This document shows, one piece after another, positions 30,337 to 48,760 of a stretch of 64,000 nucleotides of DNA; position 1 is the first letter of the stretch; each line of letters opens with the position of its first letter. The stretch is from the IMG/VR virus record IMGVR_UViG_3300042894_002308, positions 71,769 to 135,768 of that record. One strand, written 5' to 3'. The notes under the pieces are model-generated. The model did no database searches, was not told the origin of the DNA, and saw only the letters and a list, made by a program, of their open reading frames with translations. Made by a program: the position numbers and the translations under genes. The DNA is from a virus.

Positions 30337-30858
30337 TTAATCTTTTGTAATATCACTAATTTCAATATAATCAAACGCAATAATAACGTTAAAACTATTT
30401 AACGTATTTGGATTACCCATATTAAGTGGAATCGGTTGAATTCCGGTAGGCCAACAACCATTCAAAATCCATTCTTTTTGTGGATTCTGGTTACCATTTA
30501 TATCTAAATGTTGAATTTTCCAGTTATATGCTTTATAATCATCTGGATCTATCGTGCTAACATTTGTATCATGATTATTAATAAAATCTTGCCATTTTTG
30601 GATTCTACCCCAAATGTTGTTGCTACCAGTATCATCCCAAACATTGAAAGACCATGTACCGTAATCTCTTTCTCCAGGATAGTGATAAAATCTTCCAAAA
30701 TGTTGATAACTAATTGTTTTTACTGCTGAATTTGGAATTGTTGTAGCGCGAACATGATAATCTGTAAAACCACCACCAGTTGGAAAACTGCCCGTAATAC
30801 GAAAACGGTTTTTTCTATTTCCACCAAAGAAGTTATTTTTAAAATCATTAATTAGCAT
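30337..30858 (-). CDS. gp19: Tail tube protein, copy 2
   Basis: GGNRKNRFR, PGERDYGTW, WPTGI. Confidence 0.85.
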   Translation of the reverse strand: MLINDFKNNFFGGNRKNRFRITGSFPTGGGFTDYHVRATTIPNSAVKTISYQHFGRFYHYPGERDYGTWSFNVWDDTGSNNIWGRIQKWQDFINNHDTNVSTIDPDDYKAYNWKIQHLDINGNQNPQKEWILNGCWPTGIQPIPLNMGNPNTLNSFNVIIAFDYIEISDITKD

Positions 30859-30859
30859 T

Positions 30860-31402
30860 TTAAGTATTATAGTTGTCTTGTATTTTTAAGTAATCAAAAG
30901 TTAAAGTAGTACTAAAAGAACTAAATCCTGCATCTCCCATGTTTAATTCCACTTCACCCACAACCGATGGCCAACATTTGTAAAGTGTTATTGTTTTTAA
31001 TAAACCACCATTTGCATCTAATTGTTTTACTATCCATGTTTTTTGTAAAGAATCATAATTAAAATCATCAGAATCTACTAAATGTGTGTAATGTCCATCC
31101 ATCAATTCTGACCATGTATGCATAGATTTCCACAAATTCTGAGTATTATTATCATCGTATATACCAACTGCCCACGTACTATATTGTCTATCTCCGGGTA
31201 ACAATAACATTCTACCGCGATAAGGAACCGGAATTGTATTTATTTGAGTTCCCGGTAAAGATGCAGATACCATTTTAAATGTAGCATCGGATTGAGTAAA
31301 TGGAACTTTTGTAGGCCATGAAGGAACAACAACAAAGCGGTTTGCACGGGTTCCTCCATTAAACCCGTTTTTAAAATTGATTATGGAGTTTCTATTTGCC
31401 AT
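30860..31402 (-). CDS. gp19: Tail tube protein, copy 1
   Basis: GGTRANRF, VPYRGR...PGDRQYSTW, WPSVVGEVEL, TLTFDY. Confidence 0.9.
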   Translation of the reverse strand: MANRNSIINFKNGFNGGTRANRFVVVPSWPTKVPFTQSDATFKMVSASLPGTQINTIPVPYRGRMLLLPGDRQYSTWAVGIYDDNNTQNLWKSMHTWSELMDGHYTHLVDSDDFNYDSLQKTWIVKQLDANGGLLKTITLYKCWPSVVGEVELNMGDAGFSSFSTTLTFDYLKIQDNYNT

Positions 31403-32697
31403 TATTGTGTTACAACAGTTAGTGATACTTCAAAACTATCCAAGCTCAAAATTGGTTGAACGACAACTGTCATATTAAGTGACGTGCTAAAATCATCATT
31501 GTTCGTACTATCACATGTAATTTGTGTAGCTGCTGTAAACAAAAATTGACTATACTTACTGAGAGCCGTTCTTATTTCAGATGTTACATACGTTCTTGTT
31601 TGTGTATCGTTGGGTTGGAACAAATATTTCATACCAATATTTGTTAAATCTTGGTATATTGCAGATTTAAGTTTCGACACACCAATTCGATCTTCAGCTA
31701 TAATTGTTGCATTTGCTGTTACACCAACCAAATCCGCTCCCAAGAAATTAGGAGCACTTTGATTGTTTACAAAGAAATTTAAACGATTTGTTTTTAATGA
31801 TTCTTTTAAACTGCTATTCCATTCAATAGCATTACTTATATTTCCATTTAATACTTTTGCAAGATTTATACCAGCAACAGTTAAATATAGTTGATTTCTG
31901 TTTTTAGATCTAGCAAAGAACCCACCAACATCACCTACTGCTGGGATATTGTAAGTAATTTTACTACCATTAACTAAAGATGCAGTATCTAAGTCTGCAA
32001 CTGTTTTAATACCATACACATTAAACATTCTATCTGCTATTTCTCCGGTGCAGTTACCAGATAAAGATACATAATCACCCATAGTTAAACCATTTCCGGT
32101 AACTCCTGATGAATCAGCTATGGATGGGAAAATACCAGTAGAATAGTCTTGAGAAATTAACCATTGGACTAAATTACTTGTTGCAGCTTGACCAATAATA
32201 ACATCTAATTTTTTATTTGTATCTGTTTGATATTTGGTAAATCCAGTCGGTCCGCCTGCAACAACTAATGTTCCACCATATGCCAAATAATTAATTGCAT
32301 GTAAAAAATCATTACCAACGGTTCTTGGAGTTATACGAGTAACATTTTGTACAACACCTGTTTTTTCAAACATTCCAAAAGTGCCACCTGAATTTTGTGC
32401 ACTTATCATAAAACCAGTAATTCCAGAAAGTTTATTTAAATCTCCTGCCAAATCTTGAGGATTTGTGTATACAATATAAGTATCGCCTGTAGTTCCTTTT
32501 GGTGGGGTATATCGATATCGTCTGGAATACACTAGCCATCCAAATAAACCACCTGGATCATTGCCTGCTGCACCCGAAACACCGTTAAATGTGACACCAG
32601 CATATCCTGTTCCGAGCTGCATGCCTGCTAAAAGAACTACAGATGTACTTTCTTTAGTATATTGATTAGTGCTGAGAAATGAGCTTAATGATGGCAT
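31402..32697 (-). CDS. gp18: Tail sheath protein, short and divergent (431 aa)
   Basis: AINYLAYGGTLVV; C-terminal DRIGV...YLFQPNDTQTR...CDSTNN; between gp17 and gp19. Confidence 0.8.
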   Translation of the reverse strand: MPSLSSFLSTNQYTKESTSVVLLAGMQLGTGYAGVTFNGVSGAAGNDPGGLFGWLVYSRRYRYTPPKGTTGDTYIVYTNPQDLAGDLNKLSGITGFMISAQNSGGTFGMFEKTGVVQNVTRITPRTVGNDFLHAINYLAYGGTLVVAGGPTGFTKYQTDTNKKLDVIIGQAATSNLVQWLISQDYSTGIFPSIADSSGVTGNGLTMGDYVSLSGNCTGEIADRMFNVYGIKTVADLDTASLVNGSKITYNIPAVGDVGGFFARSKNRNQLYLTVAGINLAKVLNGNISNAIEWNSSLKESLKTNRLNFFVNNQSAPNFLGADLVGVTANATIIAEDRIGVSKLKSAIYQDLTNIGMKYLFQPNDTQTRTYVTSEIRTALSKYSQFLFTAATQITCDSTNNDDFSTSLNMTVVVQPILSLDSFEVSLTVVTQ

Positions 32698-32731
32698 TTA
32701 GATTCCTTATTCTGTCAAAATATTTAGCATT

Positions 32732-34390
32732 TTATGCTGGGTACCAAATTAAACCACCTTGCACAAACTCTTCACCATCATCTTCATTTTTTTGTTGTGG
32801 TGATATTAATATGTTATCATCTTCTGGATTTGATCCTTCTTCATAATTAAATTTACCTTGTTCGATCAAATCTGCAAAATAATCTTGTCTCGTTAACCAT
32901 GCAAAAAACACTAAAGACATGACTAAATCGTCATGGTGACCATCTTCGGCTTTAAAAGTATTAGATTTTGATACAAATGCCGTAAGTTCTGCAATTATTC
33001 TTTCATCATTTAATAAAATTTTGTCGTCTTCAATAAGTCGCTTTAAAATAGCACATCCAATTTTTTTAGTTTGTGCTGTAGTACGTATTCCCATTTCATT
33101 TTTACCAACTCCACCAAAACCCTGTGATAGAATTTGTCCTTTTCTTCCAAGAACTTTTGTCATTAAAACATTTTCATATTCTAAATCGGTATGCAATATA
33201 CCGGAAACTTGCCCCCCCAGATCATTTGTTTCTATTAAAACAAATGCATTATTATATAATTTTGCTGCAGAATTTAATACAGTTGGATAATGAAATGGAC
33301 TTATTGTATTATTTCTGTATGTGGACACAACTTGATAAGGAGTAGTTGTAGCATCTATAATGGTATAGGCAGAGTAATCAGCACCTTGCCCACGTGACAC
33401 GTCTGCCTGCAAGAAATACGTATGATCTTTTTCAGGATATGCAAATGTTCGCAAACCTTCATTTGTTTCATATAAAGGTTCTTCACCAGCCAAAACATTT
33501 AATTTACTAGTATTAATTAATGTATTACTAGAACCTAAAAAACTACATCCATACTCTTGTTCAAACTGTTCAGGGCTTGTATTAGCAATCTGCTCTTCTG
33601 CCCATACATCGTCTCTTTTTGGTCCACCCGGAGATATAGGAACGTCTCTCCAACTTACTTCTACTGGAATAAATTTATTTTTTTGTTTATGACCATCAAC
33701 TCTATTTGCATCAATCCATAATTTATGAAAATGATTGAGTCCATTAGGTGTAGATACAATTACAAGTTTTGTAGTGGTACCAGCTGAAATTGTTGGATAT
33801 GTTGATGCATAGAATTCTTCTGCAATATGTGAGGGCAAGAAGGCGTATTCGTCTAAAAGAAGAAAGTTAAATGAACCACCACGGATTGCAGCAGATGATG
33901 TTGCATCACACATTACTCTAGATCCGTTTTCTAGCTTCATTGATGTCTTATTCCATTCTACGACACCTTGTTGTAAAAACTGTGGTAAGTTTTCATATGC
34001 TAATTGCAGTTTAGAATATAGTTCATCTTTTGCTGTTTTTAATCTGTTAGCTAAAATTGCTACACTAACGCTTTGATTAAATGTTATGTAATGACAAATA
34101 TATCCAATAACCGAAGTAGACTTTCCAGACTGACGAGGCCATTTAGAAATAACAAATCGATTTTTGTGAATTTGATTAACAAATTTTTGTTGATAATCAT
34201 ATAACTGTAAAGGCATAATACCTTTATCAAGAGTTTTTACTTTTACGTATTTACTACAAAAATAGACAGGATCATTAGCACACTTGATATATTCTTCAAG
34301 CTGCTCTTTTGAATATTGTATATCTACACCAGGTGGTTTTAATTTTGAGTTATTTCTATACCCAATATTATTGCTGTTTTGCGCCTTCAT
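32732..34390 (-). CDS. gp17: Terminase large subunit
   Basis: PRQSGKST, LLDEYAF, VSTPNG, DVSRGQGADYS, HDDLVM. Confidence 0.98.
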   Translation of the reverse strand: MKAQNSNNIGYRNNSKLKPPGVDIQYSKEQLEEYIKCANDPVYFCSKYVKVKTLDKGIMPLQLYDYQQKFVNQIHKNRFVISKWPRQSGKSTSVIGYICHYITFNQSVSVAILANRLKTAKDELYSKLQLAYENLPQFLQQGVVEWNKTSMKLENGSRVMCDATSSAAIRGGSFNFLLLDEYAFLPSHIAEEFYASTYPTISAGTTTKLVIVSTPNGLNHFHKLWIDANRVDGHKQKNKFIPVEVSWRDVPISPGGPKRDDVWAEEQIANTSPEQFEQEYGCSFLGSSNTLINTSKLNVLAGEEPLYETNEGLRTFAYPEKDHTYFLQADVSRGQGADYSAYTIIDATTTPYQVVSTYRNNTISPFHYPTVLNSAAKLYNNAFVLIETNDLGGQVSGILHTDLEYENVLMTKVLGRKGQILSQGFGGVGKNEMGIRTTAQTKKIGCAILKRLIEDDKILLNDERIIAELTAFVSKSNTFKAEDGHHDDLVMSLVFFAWLTRQDYFADLIEQGKFNYEEGSNPEDDNILISPQQKNEDDGEEFVQGGLIWYPA

Positions 34391-34814
34391 TTATAACCTC
34401 CACATCAATTACTTTTTCAGTACTTCTCTCTTTATTTAACAGATTTTGTAGATCTTTTGTTGATCCAACAAATACTGAATTATTAGTTTGAGTCAATTTA
34501 GTGGCAGTGGCAGAGGTAATATCTTTGGCACTTTTATGTACAGAAAGCACATTGTTATTTAAATCTGCCATAGTTTTTAACATTATGGCAACTACTTCAA
34601 ATGCACGCGGACTATCTGATTCGGTTGCTACTTTTAATACACTTTCTAAAGCAAGGTTACCATTTTGAATTAAATCTTTGAGATTATTTTGAACCATCTC
34701 ATAGTCTTTACCAAAATTATTAGAATTAAAAGTTCCACCAACTAAATTCTTAGAAGACTCTGGTTTAGATGGTTCAACATCAAATAGTTTTGCTAAATTT
34801 TTATTTAAAGTCAT
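34368..34814 (-). CDS. gp16: Terminase small subunit
   Basis: SPRAFEV, NNSVFVGSTKDLQ. Confidence 0.93.
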   Translation of the reverse strand: MTLNKNLAKLFDVEPSKPESSKNLVGGTFNSNNFGKDYEMVQNNLKDLIQNGNLALESVLKVATESDSPRAFEVVAIMLKTMADLNNNVLSVHKSAKDITSATATKLTQTNNSVFVGSTKDLQNLLNKERSTEKVIDVEVINEGAKQQ

Positions 34815-34818
34815 TATC

Positions 34819-35475
34819 TTAATCTATTTCTATAATTGGATTGATAGTAGTAATTGTAGTAAAACTTTGTACTTCACCAAATATCCATGATTTAGCTACA
34901 AATTGAAATGAAGCAATATTTAAACGACGAGAAGAAAAATCACCTTCATATTTTTCTGTTATACTATTACTTTGCATAATAATAGGAATATCAAGATTTG
35001 TTTGTACATCATTCATATCAAGCCTAATAGTATGATCTGGCACAAAATATGGCATTATTTGTTCAACAATTTGAAGTAAATCATCAGTATGTCGGGTATA
35101 CGCATATAAATTAAATACAACATTTACAGGAATCTGACTTTTAATTTTATTTCCATTAGCCTGACATACATCATTAACACTTTGATTTGTATTAAGCGCA
35201 TACCTACCCAATCTTCTTGATGGATCCGGTGAAATATTAGACATCATAAAACTTATAATAGGTACTTGGACTTCAATACGAGTACCGTCTGTTATTGATG
35301 ACGGTTGCAATAACCGTTGAATAAATTTTTCTTGAGCAGCATAATGCACTGGAACGCGAATTAAAAATGGATTGCCAGTATCTGGATCTTTATGTTGTAT
35401 TTCAATATTACTAAACAAAGAACCAAATCCAACAACCAATTTTCTTAAATTTTCATTATAAAAGTTTCCAAACAT
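34819..35475 (-). CDS. gp15: Tail sheath stabiliser
   Basis: FGSLFSNI, VPVHYAAQEKF, QIVEQIMPYF. Confidence 0.92.
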   Translation of the reverse strand: MFGNFYNENLRKLVVGFGSLFSNIEIQHKDPDTGNPFLIRVPVHYAAQEKFIQRLLQPSSITDGTRIEVQVPIISFMMSNISPDPSRRLGRYALNTNQSVNDVCQANGNKIKSQIPVNVVFNLYAYTRHTDDLLQIVEQIMPYFVPDHTIRLDMNDVQTNLDIPIIMQSNSITEKYEGDFSSRRLNIASFQFVAKSWIFGEVQSFTTITTINPIIEID

Positions 35476-35485
35476 TTAAGCTCCT

Positions 35486-36163
35486 TTATGAACAACTAAT
35501 ATCCGAGTTACATTCATCAAACGGATTATTGGGATCAAATCCGTAACTTATTCCCTCTTGTTTAAGGATGTCGTTAACTCCCATAGTTGTGCCCAGTATA
35601 TTATTTAAAGGAATTACAGTAGAGCCAGAAAGACCTCTTGTTGTTGTATATGGTGAATTGATTGCAGTATTTGGTGTGTCAATCTTTTCGTAGCTATAAG
35701 TAAACAACTCTGCAGTTATTTGATATGAATATAATTTACCTAATGGATATAAAGGGTTTTCATGTTCTACAAAGTTAATTTCAAATAACGATTTTGATAA
35801 TGGAAAATATATAAGATCACCTTCTCTGGGTCTTATAATTGTAGCATCATATGTTGTTACTTCTTCTTTAAATCTTTTACGCGCAAGTAATAAAGATATT
35901 TTATCACGAATTTCTAATCCGAATTGACTTATTACATCGGTGCCGTCAAATCCTTTATAAGATTGAATATACATTTCTATAGTATAAATCTGTTCAAAAG
36001 AAGACGCTGGATCTTCACCAAAAATTTTATCTATACTAAAATATTTTCTAGGTACATAATAACAATCCTGACCCATAGCTTGTATCAATTCAACGGTAAA
36101 ACTTTCAACTAATGATTGTTCTGGGCCAAAACTTGTAAGATTAAGATATCTATTTGTTGCCAT
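35486..36163 (-). CDS. gp14: Neck protein
   Basis: YYVPR, SQFGLEIRD, RPREGDLIYFP, FEINFVEHE. Confidence 0.93.
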   Translation of the reverse strand: MATNRYLNLTSFGPEQSLVESFTVELIQAMGQDCYYVPRKYFSIDKIFGEDPASSFEQIYTIEMYIQSYKGFDGTDVISQFGLEIRDKISLLLARKRFKEEVTTYDATIIRPREGDLIYFPLSKSLFEINFVEHENPLYPLGKLYSYQITAELFTYSYEKIDTPNTAINSPYTTTRGLSGSTVIPLNNILGTTMGVNDILKQEGISYGFDPNNPFDECNSDISCS

Positions 36164-36164
36164 T

Positions 36165-36995
36165 TTAACCTATCATGGGATCTACTGGTAATTCATGGGT
36201 TTTGAGTAATGTCGCCTCAATTACATCTAATTCTTTTTGAGCATCTTGCATTATTGCTGCGGAGTTTATAGAAGCTCCACCTGGAAGTGGTATACCAGCA
36301 TATTTCATTAAATTTTGAGCCCACTGTTTCTTTAATAGTGCTCCATAATGTCTCTGAAAAATACGATCACTCCAAACTGTTGGATGATACTCAGGATTTA
36401 CTTTTACATATGCTTCAACCATCAAATATGACCCAGCTGGAATTAAACTTTGTTGAGTTTCTAAAAATAATCTTTGAGTAGTATTTGTATACGTAAATGA
36501 ATATGGGTAATTAAATACATCATTTATTAGTTCAAGATAACTCATAGCTTCCATATAAGTTGCCATTGGACCTTGAGCCAAACCACCTTGATTAAAGTAC
36601 AAACCAAAAAAATCAAATAAAGTCATCTGATACCGCAAATCAAACATATAATCACCAACAAGATTGCCGGGAGCATATACTTTGCTTATAGTGCGTATAT
36701 CACTAGCCATTGGCCAAAATCCTGTAGCTCCAGTCTCGGATGATGTAACTGACTGTGCACCCAATCCATAACCAAATTGTGATACGTCAAAATACTTTTT
36801 TGCAACATTTTCTACAGTTACTGGAACAACAAACTGTGCTCGTTCATTAAAATTATAATGACGTTCATACAAATACTCCAAAGATTCGTCTAAACGATCA
36901 TGTGCCTGTTCTGCATCAACATTTATTTGAATTACAGGAGCACCGAGTTTTCTATATGTAAAATCAATAAATTCTTGACGGGTAGTTATGGCCAT
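36165..36995 (-). CDS. gp13: Neck protein
   Basis: RKLGAPVIQINV, KKQWAQNLMKY.G..LPGG. Confidence 0.94.
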   Translation of the reverse strand: MAITTRQEFIDFTYRKLGAPVIQINVDAEQAHDRLDESLEYLYERHYNFNERAQFVVPVTVENVAKKYFDVSQFGYGLGAQSVTSSETGATGFWPMASDIRTISKVYAPGNLVGDYMFDLRYQMTLFDFFGLYFNQGGLAQGPMATYMEAMSYLELINDVFNYPYSFTYTNTTQRLFLETQQSLIPAGSYLMVEAYVKVNPEYHPTVWSDRIFQRHYGALLKKQWAQNLMKYAGIPLPGGASINSAAIMQDAQKELDVIEATLLKTHELPVDPMIG

Positions 36996-37003
36996 AGAAA
37001 TAT

Positions 37004-37456
37004 TTATGAATTCTCAATAATTTTATTAACTTGAGAAATCAATTTTTCTTTTTCTTCACTATGACCAATAGTTACTTGAATAAGTTCCAATTCGTTAGGA
37101 TCAAATGCTTCAATCATCTCTTTTCGCAATTTAACTTCTATTGGTTTAAAATTTGGGTCATAATTGCTAAATCCAGGCATTTGCATTGGACAATTTAATA
37201 CTGGATAATCTAATTTTGAATAATCTGTACTTTCTGCCATTAGCCATGTGTGTGGTTTGTCACCGCAACCACACCCTCCACAATAGTGTTTTGTAGAATC
37301 TACATCACTTTGTTTTAAAAATGGACAGGTGGTAGTTAAAGTACCTCCACCAAAACAAGAAAGAATTCTTAATTGTTTAGTTGGAATATCTGTTTTAGTA
37401 TTTGATAAGCCACGTGAAGCTAAAGACGCAGCAAACATAATCATTTTAGTAAACAT
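37004..37456 (-). CDS. Cys-rich hypothetical protein
   Basis: R..SC...CP...CGGCGC...KL..P...CP pattern, resembles the C-terminus of the ORF at 51774. Confidence 0.6.
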   Translation of the reverse strand: MFTKMIMFAASLASRGLSNTKTDIPTKQLRILSCFGGGTLTTTCPFLKQSDVDSTKHYCGGCGCGDKPHTWLMAESTDYSKLDYPVLNCPMQMPGFSNYDPNFKPIEVKLRKEMIEAFDPNELELIQVTIGHSEEKEKLISQVNKIIENS

Positions 37457-37460
37457 AAAT

Positions 37461-38096
37461 TTAAAAAGTCGAATAATTGACTGACATACCGGCAGGAACT
37501 ATATATTTTTCAATAAATGATTTATATGAAGTTAAGTTTGACTGTTCTGCAGTGCTTATTTTAATTTCTATAGTGGTATATGCACCAGTATCTATGAACA
37601 CGCTATTCCAAGGTATTCCTAATAAAGAACATATTGCATATTTTATTGCTGCAGGAGTACCCTTACAATTAAAATAATTTGTATCAGATTTAATTAAAAA
37701 AGTTCTTAAATTTTGAATAATTCTTTGAAACTCTGTTGTACTAAAATCAGCACCAGGAAAATAAAAATCTGCCAATGCTTCTAAAAATATATCATTTGTA
37801 AAAAGTGGAACTCGTATTGTTTCCCAATTTAATTGTGCGCCATATCCATACTCTTGACTCAATAACCATCTTAAATAATTTTTTATCAAAGGAACAATAG
37901 TTACATTATTTGGATTGTCAGAGTATTCTTTTAGTATCCATTGTGGAAATAATGATTCTACTGTTAGCTTATCACCCAACCAAGGTTTATCTAAATTTAT
38001 ATAATAATCACTACCTGCTGCAGTAGAAGCAGTTTCTGACAATAAATTCATTTTAGTGTCAAGAGATAAAGCTAAATTATTTAATAGTAATATCAT
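37461..38096 (-). CDS. Short baseplate wedge protein (gp7-like)
   Basis: FPQWI, IKNYLRWL, YFNCKGTPAAIKY, IVPAGM; follows gp6. Confidence 0.7.
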   Translation of the reverse strand: MILLLNNLALSLDTKMNLLSETASTAAGSDYYINLDKPWLGDKLTVESLFPQWILKEYSDNPNNVTIVPLIKNYLRWLLSQEYGYGAQLNWETIRVPLFTNDIFLEALADFYFPGADFSTTEFQRIIQNLRTFLIKSDTNYFNCKGTPAAIKYAICSLLGIPWNSVFIDTGAYTTIEIKISTAEQSNLTSYKSFIEKYIVPAGMSVNYSTF

Positions 38097-39172
38097 TGTG
38101 TATATACTAAACGTATTCCAGCAAGTTTTCTAGCATTTAAATAAGTCATTAATGCTGTTTGATTTGATGCAGATAAGTTTGTAACATATACATTTACTGT
38201 ACCAGGTACACAACAATCATTAACAACAGTAATATAATCTTCGCTTTCAGTGCCACTTATACCAGATCCTAAAATTGCATTAATATAATCTGATATGGTT
38301 ACACAACGATCTTGACCAGTGGCTTGAAAAAGTAAACTATATCTTGCACGATCAACACCAATTAAATTATATCCACCTGTTGGCAAATCAGTTGTATTAA
38401 ATTGTGCATCAGATCTAGATGTAATGCTTGCATTATTTGAATCAGTTCCATTTGTTAAAACAGCTTTAATTAAAACAGTACTTGATGACGTTAATGTTTT
38501 AGCACTTGGAAAATTATTTGTAACAATATATCCTTGTGGTCCGTTTATTACTGTAAACGTATTTTGATTTCCTGTTGCTGCTGTTGAAGATTTATCAACC
38601 CTAGTCCATTTATTCACTACACCAGAATTGGTTGTGCTTTCATAAAATGTAATTGTCCGGGGATCCACTGTATACGGAAGTTGACATGATTGTGTATCAT
38701 AGTCATAATTTGTATAACTAACAACCTGTGTTCCAGAATAAAGAGTAGTTGTTTTTGCATTTCCAGCAGGAACAGAATTTATATTGAAAAAATATGCAAT
38801 AGCTCCAGAACTTGTTGTAGCTTGGAATGTTGTATAATCTTGTAACGTTGCTCCAACAGCTGTAATAGTTCTCGTAGTACTTGCTCCTTGGACTGGAGCT
38901 ATGAGAACCGAATTATTAGCTGCAATACCCAGTAAACTATTTAATAAGGTAGTTGTGGTAGCAAAAGAATTAACATAACCAAACTGTGCATATACACCAT
39001 TATATGCTGTTACAGTGGATAGCAAATTAATTAATAAATTTGCTGTGCTTGCATTGTTTGCAAAATCTATATCAGCCAATTCAGGTTGTTTGGATAAAAA
39101 AGAAATTAATGATGTTTTAATATCATCAAAATCTAAAGAAGCGACTGATAAATTTTTAAGTTGGTAGGTCAT
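38093..39172 (-). CDS. gp6: Baseplate wedge protein, short (359 aa)
   Basis: LDFDDIKTSLISFL, QDRCVTISDY. Confidence 0.85.
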   Translation of the reverse strand: MTYQLKNLSVASLDFDDIKTSLISFLSKQPELADIDFANNASTANLLINLLSTVTAYNGVYAQFGYVNSFATTTTLLNSLLGIAANNSVLIAPVQGASTTRTITAVGATLQDYTTFQATTSSGAIAYFFNINSVPAGNAKTTTLYSGTQVVSYTNYDYDTQSCQLPYTVDPRTITFYESTTNSGVVNKWTRVDKSSTAATGNQNTFTVINGPQGYIVTNNFPSAKTLTSSSTVLIKAVLTNGTDSNNASITSRSDAQFNTTDLPTGGYNLIGVDRARYSLLFQATGQDRCVTISDYINAILGSGISGTESEDYITVVNDCCVPGTVNVYVTNLSASNQTALMTYLNARKLAGIRLVYTQ

Positions 39173-39552
39173 TATAGATTAACCTCTACAAAGGTAGTAG
39201 CATCTGTTTGAGTTGATATTCCATCTGTTATTGAATAAGTTACTGTAAATTGAAAGCTATCTTGAGAAGCGTATGTTGTATAAACAGATATATTATACAA
39301 TTTTGGAATAGCAGCTTGAATAGATCCAGCTAAAGATGCTTGTAGGGCTGGAAGGTTAGCTTGACCATTAAAAATATAATCAAAATAATTAGACCCAAGA
39401 TTCATACTTGATAGTAGTTCACCTTTTTGTGTTTTTAATACAACTTCTATGTACTGTGCATAGGCATTAAAACCACTTACTGTACCAATATCTTTTTTTG
39501 GTCCAGATACATTGATTTTTTCTAATAATATTGAAAAATCTTTTTTAGCCAT
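39172..39552 (-). CDS. gp25: Baseplate wedge subunit
   Basis: VLKTQKGE...LGSN..DYIF; start set at ATG 5 nt after TAAATA. Confidence 0.75.
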   Translation of the reverse strand: MAKKDFSILLEKINVSGPKKDIGTVSGFNAYAQYIEVVLKTQKGELLSSMNLGSNYFDYIFNGQANLPALQASLAGSIQAAIPKLYNISVYTTYASQDSFQFTVTYSITDGISTQTDATTFVEVNL

Positions 39553-39565
39553 CAGAATATTTAGA

Positions 39566-40375
39566 TCATGGATAATATGGACCACCATCATCAGAACCAC
39601 TATAGTCTGGAGCTATATTAGATAATGATAATGCAGTTTCATGCGTTCCAGAATTTGTAAACACATGTTTGATTCCCATAACGTAATATAAACCATTTAA
39701 TACAGAATTTTCTTTTGAATAGGGATATCCACTTATTCCGTTTAAACGAACAAGCATAACTTGACCAACTTTTAAATTAAAATCTCCAGCTACAGTAACA
39801 TTTACTTTTCTTCCGTATTGTAAAGCATCAACAAATTCTGCACGTTTAACTGGAGTTTCTACTGGAGTATTCCAAAAAGAAGCAACATTTAATCTGTGTT
39901 TAATATATGCTTCATATCTTGGTGCTAATTCCGGACAGGTACAACTGTATGGAGCATCTGGAGTTCCCCAAAGACATCCAAGCCAATCTAGTCCCAAAGA
40001 AGAACTAGCAGCTACTTGATTACATTCTTCTGGTGGATCATTTAATAAAAGATCTACAGGCGTAAAAGTATTTAATAGATTAATAGTCGGAACCCCGGCT
40101 CCTGTCCATAAAGTATAACTACTAGCAGTACCTCCAGAACTACCACTGCTACCGCTGCTACCTGAACTCGTTGAAGTTCCAGTATAAAATCCTATAGCAG
40201 TAGCAATTTCTTGAACTCCAGGAAATCGTGTAAAACAATCATCTAAACTAGATGGTGCATTGGTAACTCCTCTGGTAATGGAAGAATTGGCACACTGATA
40301 AGAATCTTTACTCGTTACAGAATATAATGCAGTTTGTGGATGATTTGATCCATATGTTAATATTTGTCCTGACAT
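39566..40375 (-). CDS. Baseplate hub, C-terminal part (gp27/late-control-D-like)
   Basis: VTVAGDFNLKVGQV...LNGLYYVMGIKHVF...HET.LSL. Confidence 0.65.
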   Translation of the reverse strand: MSGQILTYGSNHPQTALYSVTSKDSYQCANSSITRGVTNAPSSLDDCFTRFPGVQEIATAIGFYTGTSTSSGSSGSSGSSGGTASSYTLWTGAGVPTINLLNTFTPVDLLLNDPPEECNQVAASSSLGLDWLGCLWGTPDAPYSCTCPELAPRYEAYIKHRLNVASFWNTPVETPVKRAEFVDALQYGRKVNVTVAGDFNLKVGQVMLVRLNGISGYPYSKENSVLNGLYYVMGIKHVFTNSGTHETALSLSNIAPDYSGSDDGGPYYP

Positions 40376-40390
40376 AAATTAATCCTATTT

Positions 40391-42430
40391 TTATTGATTA
40401 TTACCATTAACTGTAGTTGATGTAGTTTGACAGCTACCATCTACAACATTTTCTGCCCAGAAATAACTTAAAAATTTATTTTGATATTCTGGATAAACTT
40501 GATTGCCACTTTCTGATAATAATGTAGTTAATGGAATCTGATACATTTTTACAATATGAAATATGTCAGCAGAATCTGGTGGAGTAGCACTTCCATTAGT
40601 TCCTATTGCTCTATATTGAAATCCAGATGGAATATTAGAAGGACTCCAACCAGGTGGAAGATAGGATGATGTTAAACCGCGTTCATTTACATTTATTGCC
40701 CATGTATCATCTTGTGTTGCACTAGATGCAACTGAATCTAAACTCCAATTTTCTAATTGATGAAAATAATATGACGCTGCACCTGATGATCCACCTGATC
40801 CTCCAGAAGAACCAGACATTCCAGCTGGACCACATGCTCCATATATGGCATTAAATTTAAGTTTATTCCATTTATATCTGTATTTTTTTGCATTTCCTGG
40901 TACAGATCCACTTATTCCAGAAACGCTATCTGGTTCATAACGTTGTAATAAAGCAAAAAAATCTTGTTCTGGTTGTTTGCCCATACAACATAAAGAATAC
41001 ATTACAAAATTTTGAGCTTCTATTTCTCTTAATTTTTTTAATCTGTCTTCAGATGCTCCTGTTAGGGTAGATTGAAATACATCATAACGAATGTCAATAA
41101 CTTTTTGTAAATACGTATCTATTCCATTTATTCCAAGAGAAGTGCTTGTAGCAGGAAGATCTTTATCATCTGGATAGTGGGGATGTATCGGAGTCATATC
41201 AAACATGTTTTTCCACATATCTGGACTATCCAGATATGGCATGTAGCCACTCTCACCCATCAATACCATATTATAATAGCTCTTCTCAGTACCATATTGA
41301 TTTCCTAACAAATTTGATATTGATTTATCATTTGTAGGTAATTGACCATCAAAATATCCCCAAGGATGATCAATAAAGATATTATCTCCACCTTTAGGGG
41401 CAGTTGTTCCACGTCCATATATACTTACTACATCAATATTATATTTTTGTCCATCATCTTGAAAATGAAAAGTTAAATTTTTTGTAGTATTACGTTCTGA
41501 TTCAATAATAGCATCTGATAAAGCATCTCCAGTAAGACCTAAATTTACTTCTACTGTATTTGTATCCAAATACTTTGGAGTTTTTCTTATGTAATAATAA
41601 TTTTTAGAAATCCATTGATATGCTGGATTAGTAGCAGCAAAGTATGCTTTTCTATAATATCTACCATCAATATTTCTTGTAACTTGATCACCATCAAAAA
41701 CTGCCACACTTCTCACTTCATCTATTACAGTTGCAGCAGAAATATCATCAGCTAAGTTACGTTCAAAAGATTTAAAATTCATTGCCCCATCAAAAGAAGT
41801 CCAAAATGCAAAATTTGCATCTCCCTTATTATTTACTGCACCATTGCACAAATACTGCATAAATTCAATAACATTATCTGGTATTGCTTCTTCACCACTA
41901 TTATATGGAATTAAAGGACGATATAAGAAAAAATTTGATGCAAAATCATTATATCCATAAGTTGGAGCATTACACACAGTTCTTAATTTAACTATTAATT
42001 CATTTATACCAAAAACAGTTGGTTTTTTAATTCCTAATAAATTATTTACAGAATTTTTAGATAAAAAGGTATAATGCTGATTAGTAAAATTAATTGCAAC
42101 TAAAGTTATTTCGCTATCTGACGCCGCATTATTAATATAAGAAACACTTGTTATAGGAAAAGTATAACTATTTCCATTAAAAAATTGAAGAATAATATTT
42201 TGTATATCATTTTTTTGTATAAATGATACAATATCATTTAAGTCCGTTACAACAAGAGTACCTGCTGGTAAGGTATCTGTTACATTTTCTACCATTTCAA
42301 CTTTTTCAAAACGACATTCTGTGTTTTGTTTTACTATATCAATAGCAAAATTAGTTGATGTTGCGGGTGATTGTAAAAATAAAGATTTTACACTAGAATA
42401 TGCCGGATTAAAATTCTTAGTATTTGCCAT
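40391..42430 (-). CDS. Baseplate hub, N-terminal part with large extensions
   Basis: ENVTDTLPAGTLVVTD N-terminus and FAFW...MNFKS; position after gp53. Confidence 0.55.
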   Translation of the reverse strand: MANTKNFNPAYSSVKSLFLQSPATSTNFAIDIVKQNTECRFEKVEMVENVTDTLPAGTLVVTDLNDIVSFIQKNDIQNIILQFFNGNSYTFPITSVSYINNAASDSEITLVAINFTNQHYTFLSKNSVNNLLGIKKPTVFGINELIVKLRTVCNAPTYGYNDFASNFFLYRPLIPYNSGEEAIPDNVIEFMQYLCNGAVNNKGDANFAFWTSFDGAMNFKSFERNLADDISAATVIDEVRSVAVFDGDQVTRNIDGRYYRKAYFAATNPAYQWISKNYYYIRKTPKYLDTNTVEVNLGLTGDALSDAIIESERNTTKNLTFHFQDDGQKYNIDVVSIYGRGTTAPKGGDNIFIDHPWGYFDGQLPTNDKSISNLLGNQYGTEKSYYNMVLMGESGYMPYLDSPDMWKNMFDMTPIHPHYPDDKDLPATSTSLGINGIDTYLQKVIDIRYDVFQSTLTGASEDRLKKLREIEAQNFVMYSLCCMGKQPEQDFFALLQRYEPDSVSGISGSVPGNAKKYRYKWNKLKFNAIYGACGPAGMSGSSGGSGGSSGAASYYFHQLENWSLDSVASSATQDDTWAINVNERGLTSSYLPPGWSPSNIPSGFQYRAIGTNGSATPPDSADIFHIVKMYQIPLTTLLSESGNQVYPEYQNKFLSYFWAENVVDGSCQTTSTTVNGNNQ

Positions 42431-42431
42431 A

Positions 42432-43277
42432 TCAACTATACTTAGCCGTCACAAATGAAGACTGAAGCACTCCCAACTGAGAAGGAATAAAAACTTGAAT
42501 TTGTTTAGAGTTATTTTTTACAGTTTGCAAGGCTGTGTATAATACAGGAGAAGTAATACCTAATAATGGTGTAGATGCTGGCAAATATGTATCTAATGTG
42601 GGATTGGATGCCGTGCTTTCTTTATCTATTATTTTTGCATCATATTCTAATACCTGTGAAAGTACTTTATTTGAATATAATTTTTTGTTTCCAGTATAAT
42701 AAGTTCCTGCCCATGTAAATGTTTCATCATCATTTTTTTTCAATACTGTTACATTTTCGGCAGTACCAGTAACATTTATAAATGGTCCTGTTCCACCATA
42801 TTGTGTTCCAATAATCATATTTCCATCATAATATGATGTGCTTTCAATTAACGCAAACTGCCCCTGAATATTAAAATTTCCAGTATAACCAAATGTATAT
42901 GATCCACCAGTATTACCAGTTACAGGAACAATTATACTTCCAATTGGAAATGCTGTTCCTCCAGTTACTGCTCCAGGTGAGGGTAATAATATTAAATTAA
43001 TTTTATCAGCATTGTTTTTAGAAAACAAAAATGGATTTAGTGTTAATAAATCAAAAGGATTTATTGTTTTATTAGCACTTAAAAAAGTCCAAAAATTATT
43101 AGTATCAATATATGTCTGATAAGACGCTTCAATTAACGTAGTTTTATCATCTACTGAAATAGTATTTGTATCTAATTGTTTTTTGGTAATATCAAGATAA
43201 GTAAAAAAATCAGAAATTACAAAATCACCGATTGAAGTGGTAAATGTTGTTTTTGGTAAGTTATTAAAAAATTTCAT
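42432..43277 (-). CDS. gp53: Baseplate wedge protein (gp53-like)
   Basis: MKFFNNLP, SYQTY...FWTFL.AN...NPF; follows gp48. Confidence 0.7.
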   Translation of the reverse strand: MKFFNNLPKTTFTTSIGDFVISDFFTYLDITKKQLDTNTISVDDKTTLIEASYQTYIDTNNFWTFLSANKTINPFDLLTLNPFLFSKNNADKINLILLPSPGAVTGGTAFPIGSIIVPVTGNTGGSYTFGYTGNFNIQGQFALIESTSYYDGNMIIGTQYGGTGPFINVTGTAENVTVLKKNDDETFTWAGTYYTGNKKLYSNKVLSQVLEYDAKIIDKESTASNPTLDTYLPASTPLLGITSPVLYTALQTVKNNSKQIQVFIPSQLGVLQSSFVTAKYS

Positions 43278-44155
43278 TATCTACTCCTTGGGTCTGGACC
43301 GGGAGATGAAAGGAAGAAATCATTTCCACCCTGTGAATATACCGTAGATACTTCTGATTTAGACAATACAGTATTCATAGTCGGATCATATGTTCCGGTT
43401 TCAAACTCTGTGAATAGTAATCCAAGCAATGTAATACTAGATCCACCATTTGGTAAGTATCTTACAATTGGATCAGATGCATCATTTTTTTCAACTTTAA
43501 TAGTTTCAAGAACACAGACTAAAGGCTCACCCATCCAATTTGCTGATAAAGGACCATTTGAATTACCACCTACATTTAAAGGTATTTGATTTCCGGGAGA
43601 TACTTGTAAAACCCATAAATTTTGAGGATATGATCTTTCAGGCAAACCTTCTACTACCGTAGGATATGAACACTTTCTAAAGGTTCCTACAATATTTTCA
43701 ATTTCTATACTTTCTTTTTCATTTTTTGGAACCAGTACATATTGAAAAAAGTATTTTTTTCTACCTTCAGATACCATAGTATATTCAGCAATATTACTAA
43801 ATCTTCTAAAAGTAGAGGTGGCAAACATTCTTTCCCAGTAAAATGTAGCTGGCTGCAACATGCGCTTCAACACATTGATTGTGCCTTTGACACCACCGCC
43901 TGCGTTAGCAATGCCTGCTGCCGTCAGGACGGGTCCCACTGGATTATTGTTACTTTCACCGTATTCATGTGCAACTTGGAAGCCTGGTTCCTTTGGCATC
44001 GGAAGCATTATATGCTGTTGATTACGTTGAATAACACCACCTCTGGTTCGTTCATAGTTTACCAAAGAATATGGTGCACTATAAAAATTTAACCAAAGAG
44101 GTTGTTCAGCTGCTGAATTTGACCCACTGCTAGAAGGATATTGATAGAAACCCAT
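43277..44155 (-). CDS. gp48: Baseplate tail-tube cap
   Basis: IMLPMP, RKKYFFQYVLVPKNEKES..I..IV..F, LLFTEFE. Confidence 0.75.
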   Translation of the reverse strand: MGFYQYPSSSGSNSAAEQPLWLNFYSAPYSLVNYERTRGGVIQRNQQHIMLPMPKEPGFQVAHEYGESNNNPVGPVLTAAGIANAGGGVKGTINVLKRMLQPATFYWERMFATSTFRRFSNIAEYTMVSEGRKKYFFQYVLVPKNEKESIEIENIVGTFRKCSYPTVVEGLPERSYPQNLWVLQVSPGNQIPLNVGGNSNGPLSANWMGEPLVCVLETIKVEKNDASDPIVRYLPNGGSSITLLGLLFTEFETGTYDPTMNTVLSKSEVSTVYSQGGNDFFLSSPGPDPRSR

Positions 44156-44161
44156 ATAAAA

Positions 44162-44184
44162 TATTTAGATATATTCTCTAAATA
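44162..44184. promoter_or_regulatory. Divergent late promoters (TAAATA) for gp48 and gp4
   Basis: tattta 44162-67 and taaata 44179-84, 6 and 5 nt from their ATGs. Confidence 0.75.
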
Positions 44185-44189
44185 TTAGG

Positions 44190-44618
44190 ATGGCGTACAA
44201 AACAATCTTTAATCCAAAGAATCCTAAAAAGTATGCAGGAGACGCATCAAAGATCGTTTGTAGATCTCTTTGGGAGCGAAATGTATGTAATTTTTGTGAC
44301 GAACACCCAAATATTTTAAAATGGGCTTCTGAAGAAATTGCCATTCCATATTTTAGCCCGGTAGATAAAAAAATTCACAATTATTTTCCTGATTTTTTAA
44401 TTCAATTTAAAAATACAAACGGGATACAAACATGGATGGTGGAAGTTAAACCAAAAAAACAAACCTATTTAAAAGAAAATGCATCTAAAAAAGAACAAAT
44501 TATTTGGAGTATAAACAGCGCAAAATGGGAAGCTGCAAAAAAGTATTGCGAGACAAACAAAATACAGTTTAAAATTTTTACAGAAAAAGAACTATTCAGT
44601 AATGGCAAACACAAATAA
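44190..44618 (+). CDS. gp4: Head completion nuclease
   Basis: PKNPKKYAGD, RSLWE, WASEEIAIPY, YFPDF, EVKP, NSAKWEAA. Confidence 0.93.
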   Translation: MAYKTIFNPKNPKKYAGDASKIVCRSLWERNVCNFCDEHPNILKWASEEIAIPYFSPVDKKIHNYFPDFLIQFKNTNGIQTWMVEVKPKKQTYLKENASKKEQIIWSINSAKWEAAKKYCETNKIQFKIFTEKELFSNGKHK

Positions 44619-45198
44619 TTCAAATAATTCAATTATAGGTATTAAAGATTTCTTTTCAAGACATAGGGGTTTACAAAGAAATAATAGATTTTCTATGTCT
44701 TTTTTAAATCTACCAGAAAAAATACCTCAAATTCAAAACTTTGATTTCAATCCTTTATCTGTAGCAATATCTGGAAGAGCTATCGATGGTGTTGCTGACA
44801 ATCTTGCTGGATATGGTCTTGGACGTACTGTGCCAAGATCACAAAAATTTCCAGAAGGCGTTATGCTAAATTTTCCAATAACAAATGATCACCAAATAAC
44901 ATATTTTTTTAATGAATGGTTTAATGCAATTTATGCTGGTGGTAGACAAAAAGGTGATTATACTAAACCATTTCAATTATCATATTATGATGATATCATT
45001 TATAATACTCAAATGAATATAAATTTTTTAGATCCAAACGGAAATATAAATGCTACCTATGAATTTTATGAAGTATATCCCGTAGAATGTCTTCCTATGG
45101 AATTAAGTATGTTAAAAAACGATCTTTATTCTGTGTACAGTGTTTTAATGATGTTTAGAGATTTTAATTTTGTGTTACCAGTTATCCCAACAATTTAA
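44602..45198 (+). CDS. Baseplate tube initiator (gp54-like, tube fold)
   Basis: GLQRNNRF, FFNEW, YYDD, EVYP. Confidence 0.75.
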   Translation: MANTNNSNNSIIGIKDFFSRHRGLQRNNRFSMSFLNLPEKIPQIQNFDFNPLSVAISGRAIDGVADNLAGYGLGRTVPRSQKFPEGVMLNFPITNDHQITYFFNEWFNAIYAGGRQKGDYTKPFQLSYYDDIIYNTQMNINFLDPNGNINATYEFYEVYPVECLPMELSMLKNDLYSVYSVLMMFRDFNFVLPVIPTI

Positions 45199-45211
45199 AT
45201 AAGTATTAATT

Positions 45212-45880
45212 ATGGATCCAAATATTTTACAATCAATAGAACAATTAATGCCTCGTTATGAGGCTGAACTTCCTTTTAGTAAAGAAAAGGTTACATTTAC
45301 ACCGTTTAGAGTTAAAGATGCAAAAAATATATCAATAATTCTTCAAGAAGAAAATAAAAAATTATCTTTAATAGCATTAGTTGAAATTTTAAAAACAAAT
45401 ACACATGGTGTGAATGTATTAGATTTATGTCTTGCAGATGCTGAATATCTATTTTTACAAATAAGATCAAAAAGTGTTGATGAACGATTAAACCTAATAC
45501 GAAACGAAGAAAAACTTCAACTGTATATTTTTGATATTAAACATAAAAATGAGATAGTAACAGAAACTATAAACATTTCACCTGAAATAAATTTAGTATT
45601 AGAAACACCAACAATCAATAATTTAATTAAACTAAACTCTTTAGAAAAAGAAGACTTAATAAAAAGTTGTATTAAAAAGATTGTTGTAAAAAACGAAATA
45701 TATTATCCAAACAAATTTCTTCCAAAAGATTTAAAAGATATATTAGATAATCTTCCAATGTCTATGCTTGGTAAATTTGAAAACTTTTTATCAAATCAAC
45801 CAGAACTTTATGCTATATTGGAAACAAAAGAAGGTCCAAAGGAGGTCAGCGGGTTTTTAAATTTTTTTATCTTTCGGTAA
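45212..45880 (+). CDS. gp26: Baseplate hub assembly protein
   Basis: FTPFRVKD, EYLFLQIRSKSV, C-terminal GFLNFF. Confidence 0.88.
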   Translation: MDPNILQSIEQLMPRYEAELPFSKEKVTFTPFRVKDAKNISIILQEENKKLSLIALVEILKTNTHGVNVLDLCLADAEYLFLQIRSKSVDERLNLIRNEEKLQLYIFDIKHKNEIVTETINISPEINLVLETPTINNLIKLNSLEKEDLIKSCIKKIVVKNEIYYPNKFLPKDLKDILDNLPMSMLGKFENFLSNQPELYAILETKEGPKEVSGFLNFFIFR

Positions 45881-46062
45881 AGTTTTTTGATTTAAAAGAT
45901 TATTTTACAACAAACTTTACCTTAATAAATAATTTTAATTGGAACCTGTATGATTTAGATAATATGCTTTGGTGGGAACGTGAAATATATGTATCGCTGC
46001 TAATAGATTACCAAGAACAAAAAAAATACAAAGAAACAAATAATAAAATTCAAGGTTTTTAA
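45862..46062 (+). CDS. gp51: gp51-like hub assembly catalyst, no own start codon (-1 frame of gp26)
   Basis: Own translation ...LKDYFTTNFTLINNFNWNLYDLDNMLWWEREIYVSLL...; first ATG (45964) is internal to the conserved part. Confidence 0.75.
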   Translation, partial: FFYLSVKFFDLKDYFTTNFTLINNFNWNLYDLDNMLWWEREIYVSLLIDYQEQKKYKETNNKIQGF

Positions 46063-46065
46063 TAT

Positions 46066-46494
46066 ATGATAGACAATCCAAATGATTTTGTATTAGATAT
46101 ATCTGCTGAACAACAAGCATTTAGCAATTCTATTATGTCTTCTTCTGAGCAGATGCAAGAGATACAAAGTAATCCAGATGCTATTCGACTTCCTGATTCA
46201 ATGTCATATACTCCAGCCAATGTGGATGTTAGTAATGCCACGACCGCAGAAGCATCAAAAGTTGCTATGGATTTAACTATTAAATTTGATCCAGAAGAAC
46301 AATATAAAGCGTTAAAGGAAACAGTTGATGGTATGCAAAAAGGAATACAGGAACTTGGCAATGAGCAACAGTCTAAATGGATTCCTTTTCCAAAAGCAGT
46401 AAACAACTTTGAAGAAAAACCAATATTAGAACAAACTAATTTAATTTTTGAAGAAAGACGTTCTAAATTTTCTGAATATCCTCGTTGGGCATAA
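46066..46494 (+). CDS. Hypothetical 142-aa protein in the tape-measure position
   Basis: Starts 3 nt after gp51 stop, ends at terminator; short coiled-coil segment. Confidence 0.55.
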   Translation: MIDNPNDFVLDISAEQQAFSNSIMSSSEQMQEIQSNPDAIRLPDSMSYTPANVDVSNATTAEASKVAMDLTIKFDPEEQYKALKETVDGMQKGIQELGNEQQSKWIPFPKAVNNFEEKPILEQTNLIFEERRSKFSEYPRWA

Positions 46495-46519
46495 AAAAAG
46501 CCCCTTGCGGGGCTTTTTT
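46493..46519. terminator. Bidirectional terminator
   Basis: aaaaaaagcccc-ttgc-ggggctttttt between convergent genes. Confidence 0.9.
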
Positions 46520-47376: not shown

Positions 47377-47422
47377 AATAAATCTTTCCCCAAGGAACTA
47401 CCTTGGCCTAATAGTTGTTATT

Positions 47423-47450
47423 AGTATATAACCTATTTCTTGTTAGTCAA
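47423..47450 (-). promoter_or_regulatory. gp32 promoter TTGACT-N16-TATACT
   Basis: Boxes at 47445-50 and 47423-28. Confidence 0.75.
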
Positions 47451-48759: not shown

Positions 48760-48760
48760 T

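Follow-up and report, generated by a model that had tools for sequence, protein, structure and literature searches.

Gene order and the tape-measure slot

The DNA analysed here (the window: 64,000 nucleotides, positions 71,769 to 135,768 of IMG/VR record IMGVR_UViG_3300042894_002308) is the last 64 kb of one 135,768-bp viral contig, and it carries, mainly between window positions 30337 and 46494, a T4-type tail module in which a protein of 142 amino acids (aa) is encoded in the slot where related phages keep their tape-measure gene. This region represents the entire tail module of a clade of aquatic T4-lineage phages that is widespread, uncultured and related to the Kyanoviridae. Positions are those of the window unless the genome, meaning the whole contig, is named, and the PHROG scans covered 30, 40 and 56 open reading frames (ORFs), 126 together, with the scan of 56 ORFs run at E<=1e-5. 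The minus strand carries, in the order of transcription, a gp48-like gene, genes for proteins of 281, 679 and 269 aa, gp25, gp6, genes for proteins of 211 and 150 aa, gp13, gp14, gp15, gp16, gp17, the sheath gene and two tube genes. The plus strand begins with a gp4-like head completion gene (142 aa, 44190-44618; phrog_218, E 3.9e-51) and continues with a 198-aa tube-fold protein in the gp54 position (44602-45198; phrog_45, of which T4 gp54 is a member, E 2.1e-11), a position shared with C48C1 and HTVC008M, a hub assembly protein of the gp26/gp51 family (222 aa, 45212-45880; PF12322, 80.4 bits against a cut-off of 24.5; phrog_150, E 2.3e-22), a 32-aa mini-gp51 ORF with a match to the C-terminal part of gp51 (45964-46062; phrog_634, E 4.3e-5) and the 142-aa gene itself (46066-46494), assigned to the slot by synteny and without a match in PHROG or Pfam. 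Between this gene and the convergent gp32 lies a hairpin resembling a bidirectional terminator (46493-46519), consisting of an A-run, a 5-bp G+C stem, a 4-nt loop and a T-run, which was read off the sequence directly and was not listed by the pattern scan. A preliminary description of this DNA had named the 142-aa gene as the only one between gp26/gp51 and the terminator; the gene is indeed there, and the mini-gp51 ORF has to be added to it. A reverse ORF overlapping the 142-aa gene (46059-46526) has 2 homologues only and is not considered a gene.

The same arrangement is found in two related phages. In HTVC008M, the genes gp2, gp54, gp26, a 45-aa gp51 fragment and a 110-aa gene are followed by a 687-aa 'putative tail tape measure', and the divergent arm carries gp4, gp48, gp53, a 445-aa 'tail protein' and gp5. 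In C48C1, the order is gp4, gp2, gp54, gp26, a 34-aa gp51 fragment and, beside gp32, a 492-aa slot protein that is hydrophobic and glycine/alanine-rich, with gp48, gp53, a 438-aa tail protein and gp5 on the divergent arm. The 34-aa and 45-aa ORFs match phrog_634, as does the 32-aa ORF here. Because the order in this genome (gp54-like, gp26/51, mini-gp51, 142-aa gene, terminator, gp32) agrees with that of HTVC008M and C48C1 down to the mini-gp51, the 142-aa ORF occupies the tape-measure slot, and this earlier proposal now stands on firmer ground than could have been known from the single sequence. The gap between gp26 and gp32 measures 639-865 bp in 30/30 related loci holding both genes, and in all of them it contains one ORF of 142-216 aa and the mini ORF only; the larger ORF is recognised as a homologue of the 142-aa protein in 28/30, and 2/30 have an ORF of 148-176 aa instead.

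When 1.84 billion representative proteins were searched with the family profile, 86 clusters were retrieved, whose full-length members have 134-232 aa; the single longer match (532 aa, E 4.5e-4, in four stretches) is doubtful. The family conserves about 15 residues at the N-terminus and about 35 at the C-terminus; between them lies an acidic middle of variable length, with many Ser, Thr, Pro and Gln residues. The idea of a repeat unit in this variable middle was dropped, as the count of a hydrophobic-Pro-polar motif correlated with length at r = 0.35 only. The AlphaFold2 (AF2) model of the 142-aa protein, built from 61 sequences, is not globular (predicted local distance difference test score, pLDDT, 71.9; predicted template modelling score, pTM, 0.23). 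With 142 aa here and 134-232 aa across the family, the protein is too short for the ruler of a tail of about 100 nm, which takes several hundred residues. The canonical tape measure has been lost from this conserved locus across the whole clade, and a short, conserved, non-globular protein stands there instead. In related contigs, the sheath has 425-436 aa (n=21), gp6 356-366 aa (n=40), the product of the 211-aa gene 205-217 aa (n=39) and that of the 142-aa gene 141-216 aa (n=31). Because related contigs keep the same module sizes, the arrangement of small parts is a conserved trait of the lineage and not a product of chance.

Sheath, tube and neck

The minimal tail sheath (431 aa, 31402-32697, minus strand, like the other genes of this arm) is encoded between gp17 and the tube genes and matches phrog_23 (E 6.9e-6). 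When its family profile was compared with the PDB, residues 247-424 aligned to residues 464-642 of T4 gp18 (9mkb_1) with E 2e-10, so that the sheath keeps the conserved C-terminal domain of gp18, the shortening being confined to the part N-terminal of it. In T4 gp18, the N-terminal part forms surface domains. The sheath family comprises 208 database clusters at E<=1e-20, and the 120 listed span 354-450 aa, with no name better than 'hypothetical protein' among these 120. With the sheath as query, the phage collection returned 9 distant records only, all of them matching the C-terminal domain alone. Sheaths of related phages range from 516 aa (C48C1) to 923 aa (P-TIM40); within this lineage, therefore, the size of the subunit is free to vary. 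The preliminary description had taken the short sheath, gp6 and gp7 as a sign of a short tail. The sizes and positions that it gave for the 431-aa sheath, the 359-aa gp6, the 211-aa gene and the 142-aa ORF agree with the ORF calls, as do its T4 sizes with the T4 record (gp18 659, gp6 660, gp7 1032 and gp29 590 aa), but the argument built on them should be dropped, given the gp18 C-terminal domain of this sheath and the span of sizes in related phages. The small size of the sheath, gp6 and gp7 comes from the loss of surface domains, most of which the sheath subunit is without, and from a baseplate of the simple P2/Mu/Pam3 type. It is uninformative on tail length, and a short tail cannot be predicted from small sheath and wedge subunits alone.

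Beside the sheath gene lie tube paralogue A, which is gp19-like (180 aa, 30860-31402; phrog_45, E 1.4e-33; PF06841, 21.1 bits), and tube paralogue B (173 aa, 30337-30858; phrog_45, E 1.4e-24; PF06841, 17.1 bits), both under the PF06841 cut-off of 28.2. The two are 33% identical, and both copies are present in the relative G001. P-TIM40 and C48C1 have one gp19-position tube gene beside the sheath, in contrast to the duplicated tube gene at 30337-31402. A further member of the tube-fold family, the gp3-like tail completion or terminator protein (174 aa, 23702-24226, minus strand; phrog_45, E 2.1e-28), follows gp23, as does the annotated gp3-like gene in P-TIM40. The genome thus holds five tube-fold genes, namely gp3-, gp19a-, gp19b-, gp54- and gp48-like.

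The neck and terminator set is completed by a gp15-like sheath stabiliser or tail terminator (218 aa, 34819-35475; phrog_227, E 1.2e-54), a gp14-like neck protein (35486-36163; phrog_679, E 8.7e-60) and a gp13-like neck protein (36165-36995; phrog_211, E 8.4e-27), all on the minus strand, so that gp3, gp13, gp14 and gp15 were all detected. Between the wedge and neck genes stands a conserved gene for a 150-aa protein (37004-37456, minus strand), which has no PHROG or Pfam match; related contigs carry 36 homologues, 130-152 aa long. In G001, a 1076-aa gene lies between gp14 and gp15 (46619-49849, the same as L029 16848-20078); it is absent here. Taken together, the tail is of the contractile type of the T4 lineage, stripped to its core.

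Hub and baseplate

All genes of this section are on the minus strand. The central baseplate hub is assigned to the 679-aa protein (40391-42430), which combines an N-terminal gp27/Mu gp44/VgrG fold with a conserved C-terminal region of unknown fold. Its AF2 model has a mean pLDDT of 59.5, with values of mostly 70-89 in the N-terminal ~260 residues. Foldseek matched this model, with E 5e-5 to 1e-3 overall, to Mu gp44 (1wru, E 4.8e-5), T4 gp27 (1k28_D, E 7.5e-5) and VgrG-type hubs, and the VIA aligner placed it on T4 gp27 (2z6b_D) with Z 10.0 and a root-mean-square deviation of 4.5 over 215 aligned residues; the top rows of the VIA result are dominated by hub proteins of contractile tails and injection systems. 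On this predicted structure, the 679-aa protein is the gp27-fold central hub. No match was found at the sequence level in PHROG, Pfam, the phage collection (0 matches), the PDB profile search or hhalign against T4 gp27. The hub exceeds T4 gp27 (391 aa) by about 290 residues, and this extra region is highly conserved and aromatic-rich. We also considered the 679-aa ORF as a tape measure and rejected it for its strand- and aromatic-rich composition and its N-terminal hub fold; hhalign of the hub profile against gp29 gave nothing.

Around the hub gene, a gp48-like tube cap or initiator is encoded at 43277-44155 (292 aa; phrog_230, E 2.7e-9 over 34 residues), in the gp48 position of HTVC008M and C48C1. 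A 281-aa protein (42432-43277) takes the gp53 or plug position and has 41 homologues and no PHROG, Pfam or PDB match, and a 269-aa, Cys-containing protein between the hub gene and gp25 takes the gp5 or spike position (39566-40375; weak phrog_350 match, E 5.1e-4). These are followed by a gp25-like sheath initiator and wedge protein (142 aa from a GTG start, 39172-39600; phrog_120, E 5.1e-7; phrog_43, E 6.9e-6; PF04965, 22.1 bits, under the cut-off of 27.2), whose relatives are mostly 125-127 aa long as against 142 aa here, and by a gp6-like wedge protein (359 aa, 38093-39172; PF21379 Gp6-like_1st, 29.7 bits against a cut-off of 27; phrog_219, E 2e-18). A 211-aa protein (37461-38096) stands in the position of gp7 or P2 gpI; it has 39 homologues of 205-217 aa and no match in PHROG, Pfam or the PDB sequences. 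Neither PF09684, the P2 gpI/gp7-type family, nor PF04717, the gpV/gp5 spike family, was matched anywhere in the genome. PDB profile searches were empty for the 269-, 211- and 281-aa genes and empty or weak for the 292-aa gene, and hhalign comparisons with gp53, the 'tail protein', gp5 and the gp7-position gene of C48C1 gave nothing significant, including that of the 281-aa N-terminus with C48C1 gp53 (E 0.032).

Between gp6 and gp13 there are the 211-aa and 150-aa ORFs only, and no PHROG homologue of gp8-gp12, of a full-length gp7 or of wac was found among the 126 ORFs scanned. The earlier observation that no gp8-gp12 or wac genes lie between gp7 and gp13, where only the 150-aa ORF stands, thus extends to all these ORFs; it had left out of account the 679-aa hub and the fibre genes elsewhere in the genome. 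Genes for collagen-like fibres form a separate cluster at 57-77 kb of the genome. The tail lacks a peripheral baseplate (gp8-gp12, wac), and its fibre genes are located away from the tail module. Just past gp32, at 47764-50071, two strand-rich late genes of 331 and 436 aa have 28 and 22 homologues, respectively, with TATAAATA upstream and no family match; both are possible additional components of the baseplate or the fibres.

Relatives and completeness of the genome

T4-type head, neck, packaging and replication genes were found in this genome by PHROG and Pfam scans, and its major capsid protein shares about 53% identity with marine cyanomyovirus homologues. The phage collection, searched with the contig DNA, held no close relative, and no isolate or micrograph of the clade was found in the collections and literature searched. 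The literature searched, PMC9004378 and PMC9942802 among it, describes neither the clade nor a very short contractile tail in any T4-like phage. With the 679-aa hub protein as query, 44 related viral contigs were retrieved. The relative G001 (137,341 bp) is collinear with this contig and circularly permuted against it, and each spans the ends of the other, which shows the genome to be essentially complete. ORFs cover 96.7% of the contig, and the largest gap is at most 417 bp.

Comparison with known contractile tails

The likeness to T4 extends over the sheath C-terminal domain, the tube family, gp25, the first gp6 domain, the gp27 hub fold, gp26/51, the gp48/gp54-type initiators, gp3, gp13, gp14, gp15 and the adjoining T4-type head and packaging genes. 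In contrast, the sheath has 431 aa here and 659 in T4, gp6 359 and 660, the gp7-position protein 211 and 1032, and the hub 679 and 391; moreover, no homologue of gp8-gp12, wac or gp29 was detected here, and there are two tube paralogues. With the Kyanoviridae (HTVC008M, C48C1 and P-TIM40), this genome has in common, besides the capsid protein identity given above, the order of the head module and the diverging blocks gp54-gp26-mini-gp51 and gp48-gp53-hub-gp5, followed by gp25 and gp6. It differs from them in the slot protein, which has 687 or 492 aa and hydrophobic segments there and 134-232 aa here, in gp6, which has ~620-700 aa there, in the giant wedge and fibre genes that those phages carry between gp6 and gp13, in the sheath (516-923 aa there) and in the absence of gp2 at the corresponding place.

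A long tape measure of the normal kind is present in P2, Mu and Pam3, and the subunit sizes found here are within the range of P2 and Mu. These phages lack the T4-type head, neck, packaging and replication genes that this genome has, and the gpI and gpV families of P2 were not detected in it (PF09684, PF04717). According to PMC9942802, the Pam3 baseplate consists of a hub, a spike, a plug and a wedge in which one subunit is present twice and a second one once, and the Pam3 tape-measure protein plugs the DNA end. By comparison, the gene inventory here (hub, gp25, a gp6 of P2/Mu size and the gp7-, gp5- and gp53-position genes) fits a simple, minimal baseplate of the Pam3 type.

In podoviruses of the T7 gp14/15/16 type, a short tail is combined with large, ejected internal proteins that extend the channel. 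The block of large late proteins in this genome, some with a targeting-like motif and one with hydrophobic segments, resembles this arrangement as an analogy only; the proteins have no sequence or fold relationship to those of T7, and their packaging and ejection are hypothetical.

Large late proteins and the search for a tape measure elsewhere

A full-length tape measure elsewhere in the genome, which the preliminary description had proposed to look for, was not detected. The gp29 family phrog_1283 had no match in the six frames of the genome at E<=10, tblastn with the HTVC008M tape measure found no match in this genome or G001 (best E 0.71), and Pfam and PHROG scans of the ORFs gave no tape-measure family. 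By composition, a block of large proteins in the left arm (931, 495, 472, 791 and 514 aa), together with proteins of 632 and 497 aa, could be considered as candidates. All seven have TAAATA 5-19 nt upstream of the start. This hexamer occurs at most 45 nt upstream of 46/158 ORFs, as compared with 3% of random windows, often as TATAAATA or CTAAATA, for example at 44156-44189 between the gp48-like and gp4 genes; it marks known late and structural genes and is absent before most replication genes. We consider it a late-promoter-like motif, consistent with the presence of a gp55 gene at 12455-13027.

Most of the seven resemble head-internal proteins. The 495- and 472-aa proteins have their N-terminal ~45 residues in common, HExxH motifs are present in the 632- and 497-aa proteins, and the 632-aa protein shares a short N-terminal motif ending in L-I/L-E with proteins of 134, 295, 157 and 228 aa, the last of which is encoded inside the head-core gene cluster. 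A loose pattern of this motif gave 7 hits, with 2.2 expected from shuffles. These five otherwise unrelated late proteins begin with the near-identical decapeptide M-K/L-S/R-F/T-K-x-Y/F-L-I/L-E (carriers at window 26847-27533, 56427-57314 and 61518-61991, and, outside the window, at genome 7677-8081 and 42287-44185). The motif resembles the capsid-targeting and prohead-protease site of T4, and by this analogy the decapeptide-bearing late proteins are probably head-internal and injected. Because of this shared head-targeting-like N-terminus, several of the large late proteins are poor tape-measure candidates. The 791-aa protein was judged unlikely to be a tape measure for its HNH-type C-terminus and the lack of a 19-mer with mean hydropathy of 1.4; it keeps its length in 4 relatives (784-793 aa), and the ESM Atlas showed HNH-like features only. 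A 777-aa hydrophobic 'ORF' in G001 was set aside as an antisense artefact (GTG start, rich in L, V, G, H and R, no family match).

What may set the length of the tail

Tail length scales with about 0.15 nm per tape-measure residue, and in well-studied long-tailed phages and contractile injection systems it is set by a long tape measure, which also helps to open the membrane path. Whether this phage has a stubby tail depends on whether the non-globular 142-aa protein is the ruler. We suggest that the protein would take the role of gp29 in the hub and act as a ruler, and that, at ~0.15 nm per helical residue (more if extended), the 142-232 residues would give a tube of about 20-40 nm, far shorter than that of T4; the membrane-inserting function, which in normal tape measures resides in a hydrophobic segment, would then have shifted to late, probably ejected proteins such as the product of the 931-aa ORF. 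We put forward the short ruler and its tube of ~20-40 nm tentatively, as a serious possibility that we would sooner expect to fail than to hold. The fuller picture, drawn by analogy with podoviruses, would be a micro-tail of ~5-8 sheath rings (~20-40 nm) on a T4-type head, with a disordered ruler of 134-232 aa that lacks a membrane-inserting segment and with envelope crossing completed by large, ejected head-internal proteins, namely the late ones with targeting-like N-termini and the 931-aa protein with its hydrophobic segments; the five tube-fold genes could then mean that the tube consists largely of different rings in a defined stack. This whole combination we regard as unlikely.

Several observations weigh against the short ruler. 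The length of the 142-aa family varies 1.7-fold without obvious steps while other tail proteins keep their sizes. The predicted helices (residues 13-23, 76-103 and 126-136) cover only ~50 of the 142 residues, and no 19-mer of the protein reaches a mean Kyte-Doolittle value of 1.4, a value attained at least once in T4 gp29, the HTVC008M tape measure and the C48C1 slot protein alike. In hhalign, the family profile gave probabilities <1% against the HTVC008M tape measure, the HTVC008M 110-aa gene and the C48C1 slot protein. The 931-aa late protein has hydrophobic 19-mers at residues 710-728 and 782-808. The spike, gp7 and gp53 genes are named for their position alone. CheckV estimates the contig to be 75% complete, and up to ~6 kb at the contig junction is known only from G001, where the ORFs have at most 213 aa. 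Finally, we know of no contractile tail of 20-40 nm that has been described, and the literature searches surfaced none.

The tail could be of ordinary length if the tape measure had been relocated and had diverged beyond recognition, the 142-aa protein then being a hub assembly factor or the remnant of an ancestral gene; we consider this somewhat unlikely. Structural genes are scattered in T4-like genomes, and the best candidate, the 931-aa protein (genome 38003-40798, outside the window), has the late-promoter-like TAAATA 10 nt upstream of its start, hydrophobic 19-mers, a feature of all three reference tape measures, no fold or family that could be recognised (PHROG, Pfam, ESM Atlas) and a size that fits a tail of ~100-140 nm. 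However, its family does not conserve length among phages whose tail proteins keep their sizes: the protein has 931 aa in this genome, its counterpart in a near relative has 871 aa, and those of G001 (509 aa) and G002 (562 aa) have only the N-terminal ~160 residues in common with the 931-aa protein. Neither the G001 homologue nor its 1020-aa neighbour has a hydrophobic 19-mer at the same threshold. The 931-aa protein is also unlike the HTVC008M and C48C1 tape measures and unmatched in the phage collection, and its gene lies in a block of fast-evolving late genes, two of which share the head-targeting-like N-terminus.

It is also conceivable, though quite unlikely in our estimate, that the 142-aa protein assists the initiation of hub and tube as a chaperone or scaffold, similar in function to gp28/gp51 or to a tail-assembly chaperone and not present in the virion, and that tail length is set otherwise, for example by a stack of tube rings or by the C-terminal half of the hub. 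An acidic, largely unstructured, non-globular protein would suit such a role, its gene is co-transcribed with gp26/51, and gp26 and gp51 act catalytically in T4 hub assembly; five tube-fold genes are available for a ring stack, and the hub has its ~290 residues beyond T4 gp27. However, the HTVC008M slot contains a 110-aa gene together with a full tape measure, so that a chaperone alone would leave the ruler unexplained. The conserved, aromatic-rich extra region of the hub is unlike a ruler, and, to our knowledge, no contractile phage tail is free of a tape measure.

That the tape measure is missing through an incomplete contig seems very improbable. The IMG/VR record is of the linear class, the window reaches the contig end and the CheckV estimate is the one given above; nevertheless, G001 is also without a tape-measure match, and the slot is intact in 30/30 relatives. 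Because G001 bridges the junction with ORFs of at most 213 aa only, a missing segment is an unlikely hiding place. A non-contractile tail, which the preliminary description had held possible and to which nothing but the small sheath subunit points, is scarcely credible with the gp18 C-terminal domain, gp25, gp6, gp15, gp3 and a gp27-fold hub all present and with the sheath kept at 425-436 aa in 21 related contigs and found in 208 clusters at E<=1e-20.

The lineage is abundant (at least 44 viral contigs and >200 sheath clusters) and keeps every core part of the contraction machine, with a slot protein that is here one quarter to one fifth the size of its relatives' tape measures. If the 142-aa protein is the ruler, the contractile tail would be far shorter than any described, and one would have to ask how few sheath rings are enough for injection; if not, its tails would be measured by a protein of a yet unrecognised kind. 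Either outcome bears on the minimising of contractile nanomachines and is relevant to engineered tailocins and injection systems. The clade offers a natural series of variants of 134-232 aa, which can be used for testing the ruler idea.

Other features of the genome

The last 2 kb of the window at the contig end (62001-64000) have a G+C content of 49%, as compared with ~33% elsewhere, and no tRNA genes were found within the 64-kb window. Outside the window, at genome 15104-24343, lies an ORF of 3079 aa with TATAAATA 31 nt upstream; it has no PHROG or Pfam match and is absent from G001. Ten genes at 13058-20987, with 23-27% G+C, encode an epimerase, an aminotransferase, a methyltransferase, glycosyltransferases and proteins without assignment; the block has no BLAST homologue in G001, which has different genes there, and from this comparison it appears to be a swappable sugar-modification island between gp55 and uvsY. 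At 52389-55670, a late protein of 1093 aa is Gly- and Cys-rich (4.8% Cys) and has a weak match to the ALK/LTK glycine-rich family (PF12810, E 9e-7). G001 has an unrelated 1285-aa gene in its place, and the 1093-aa protein may be a variable adhesin or fibre.

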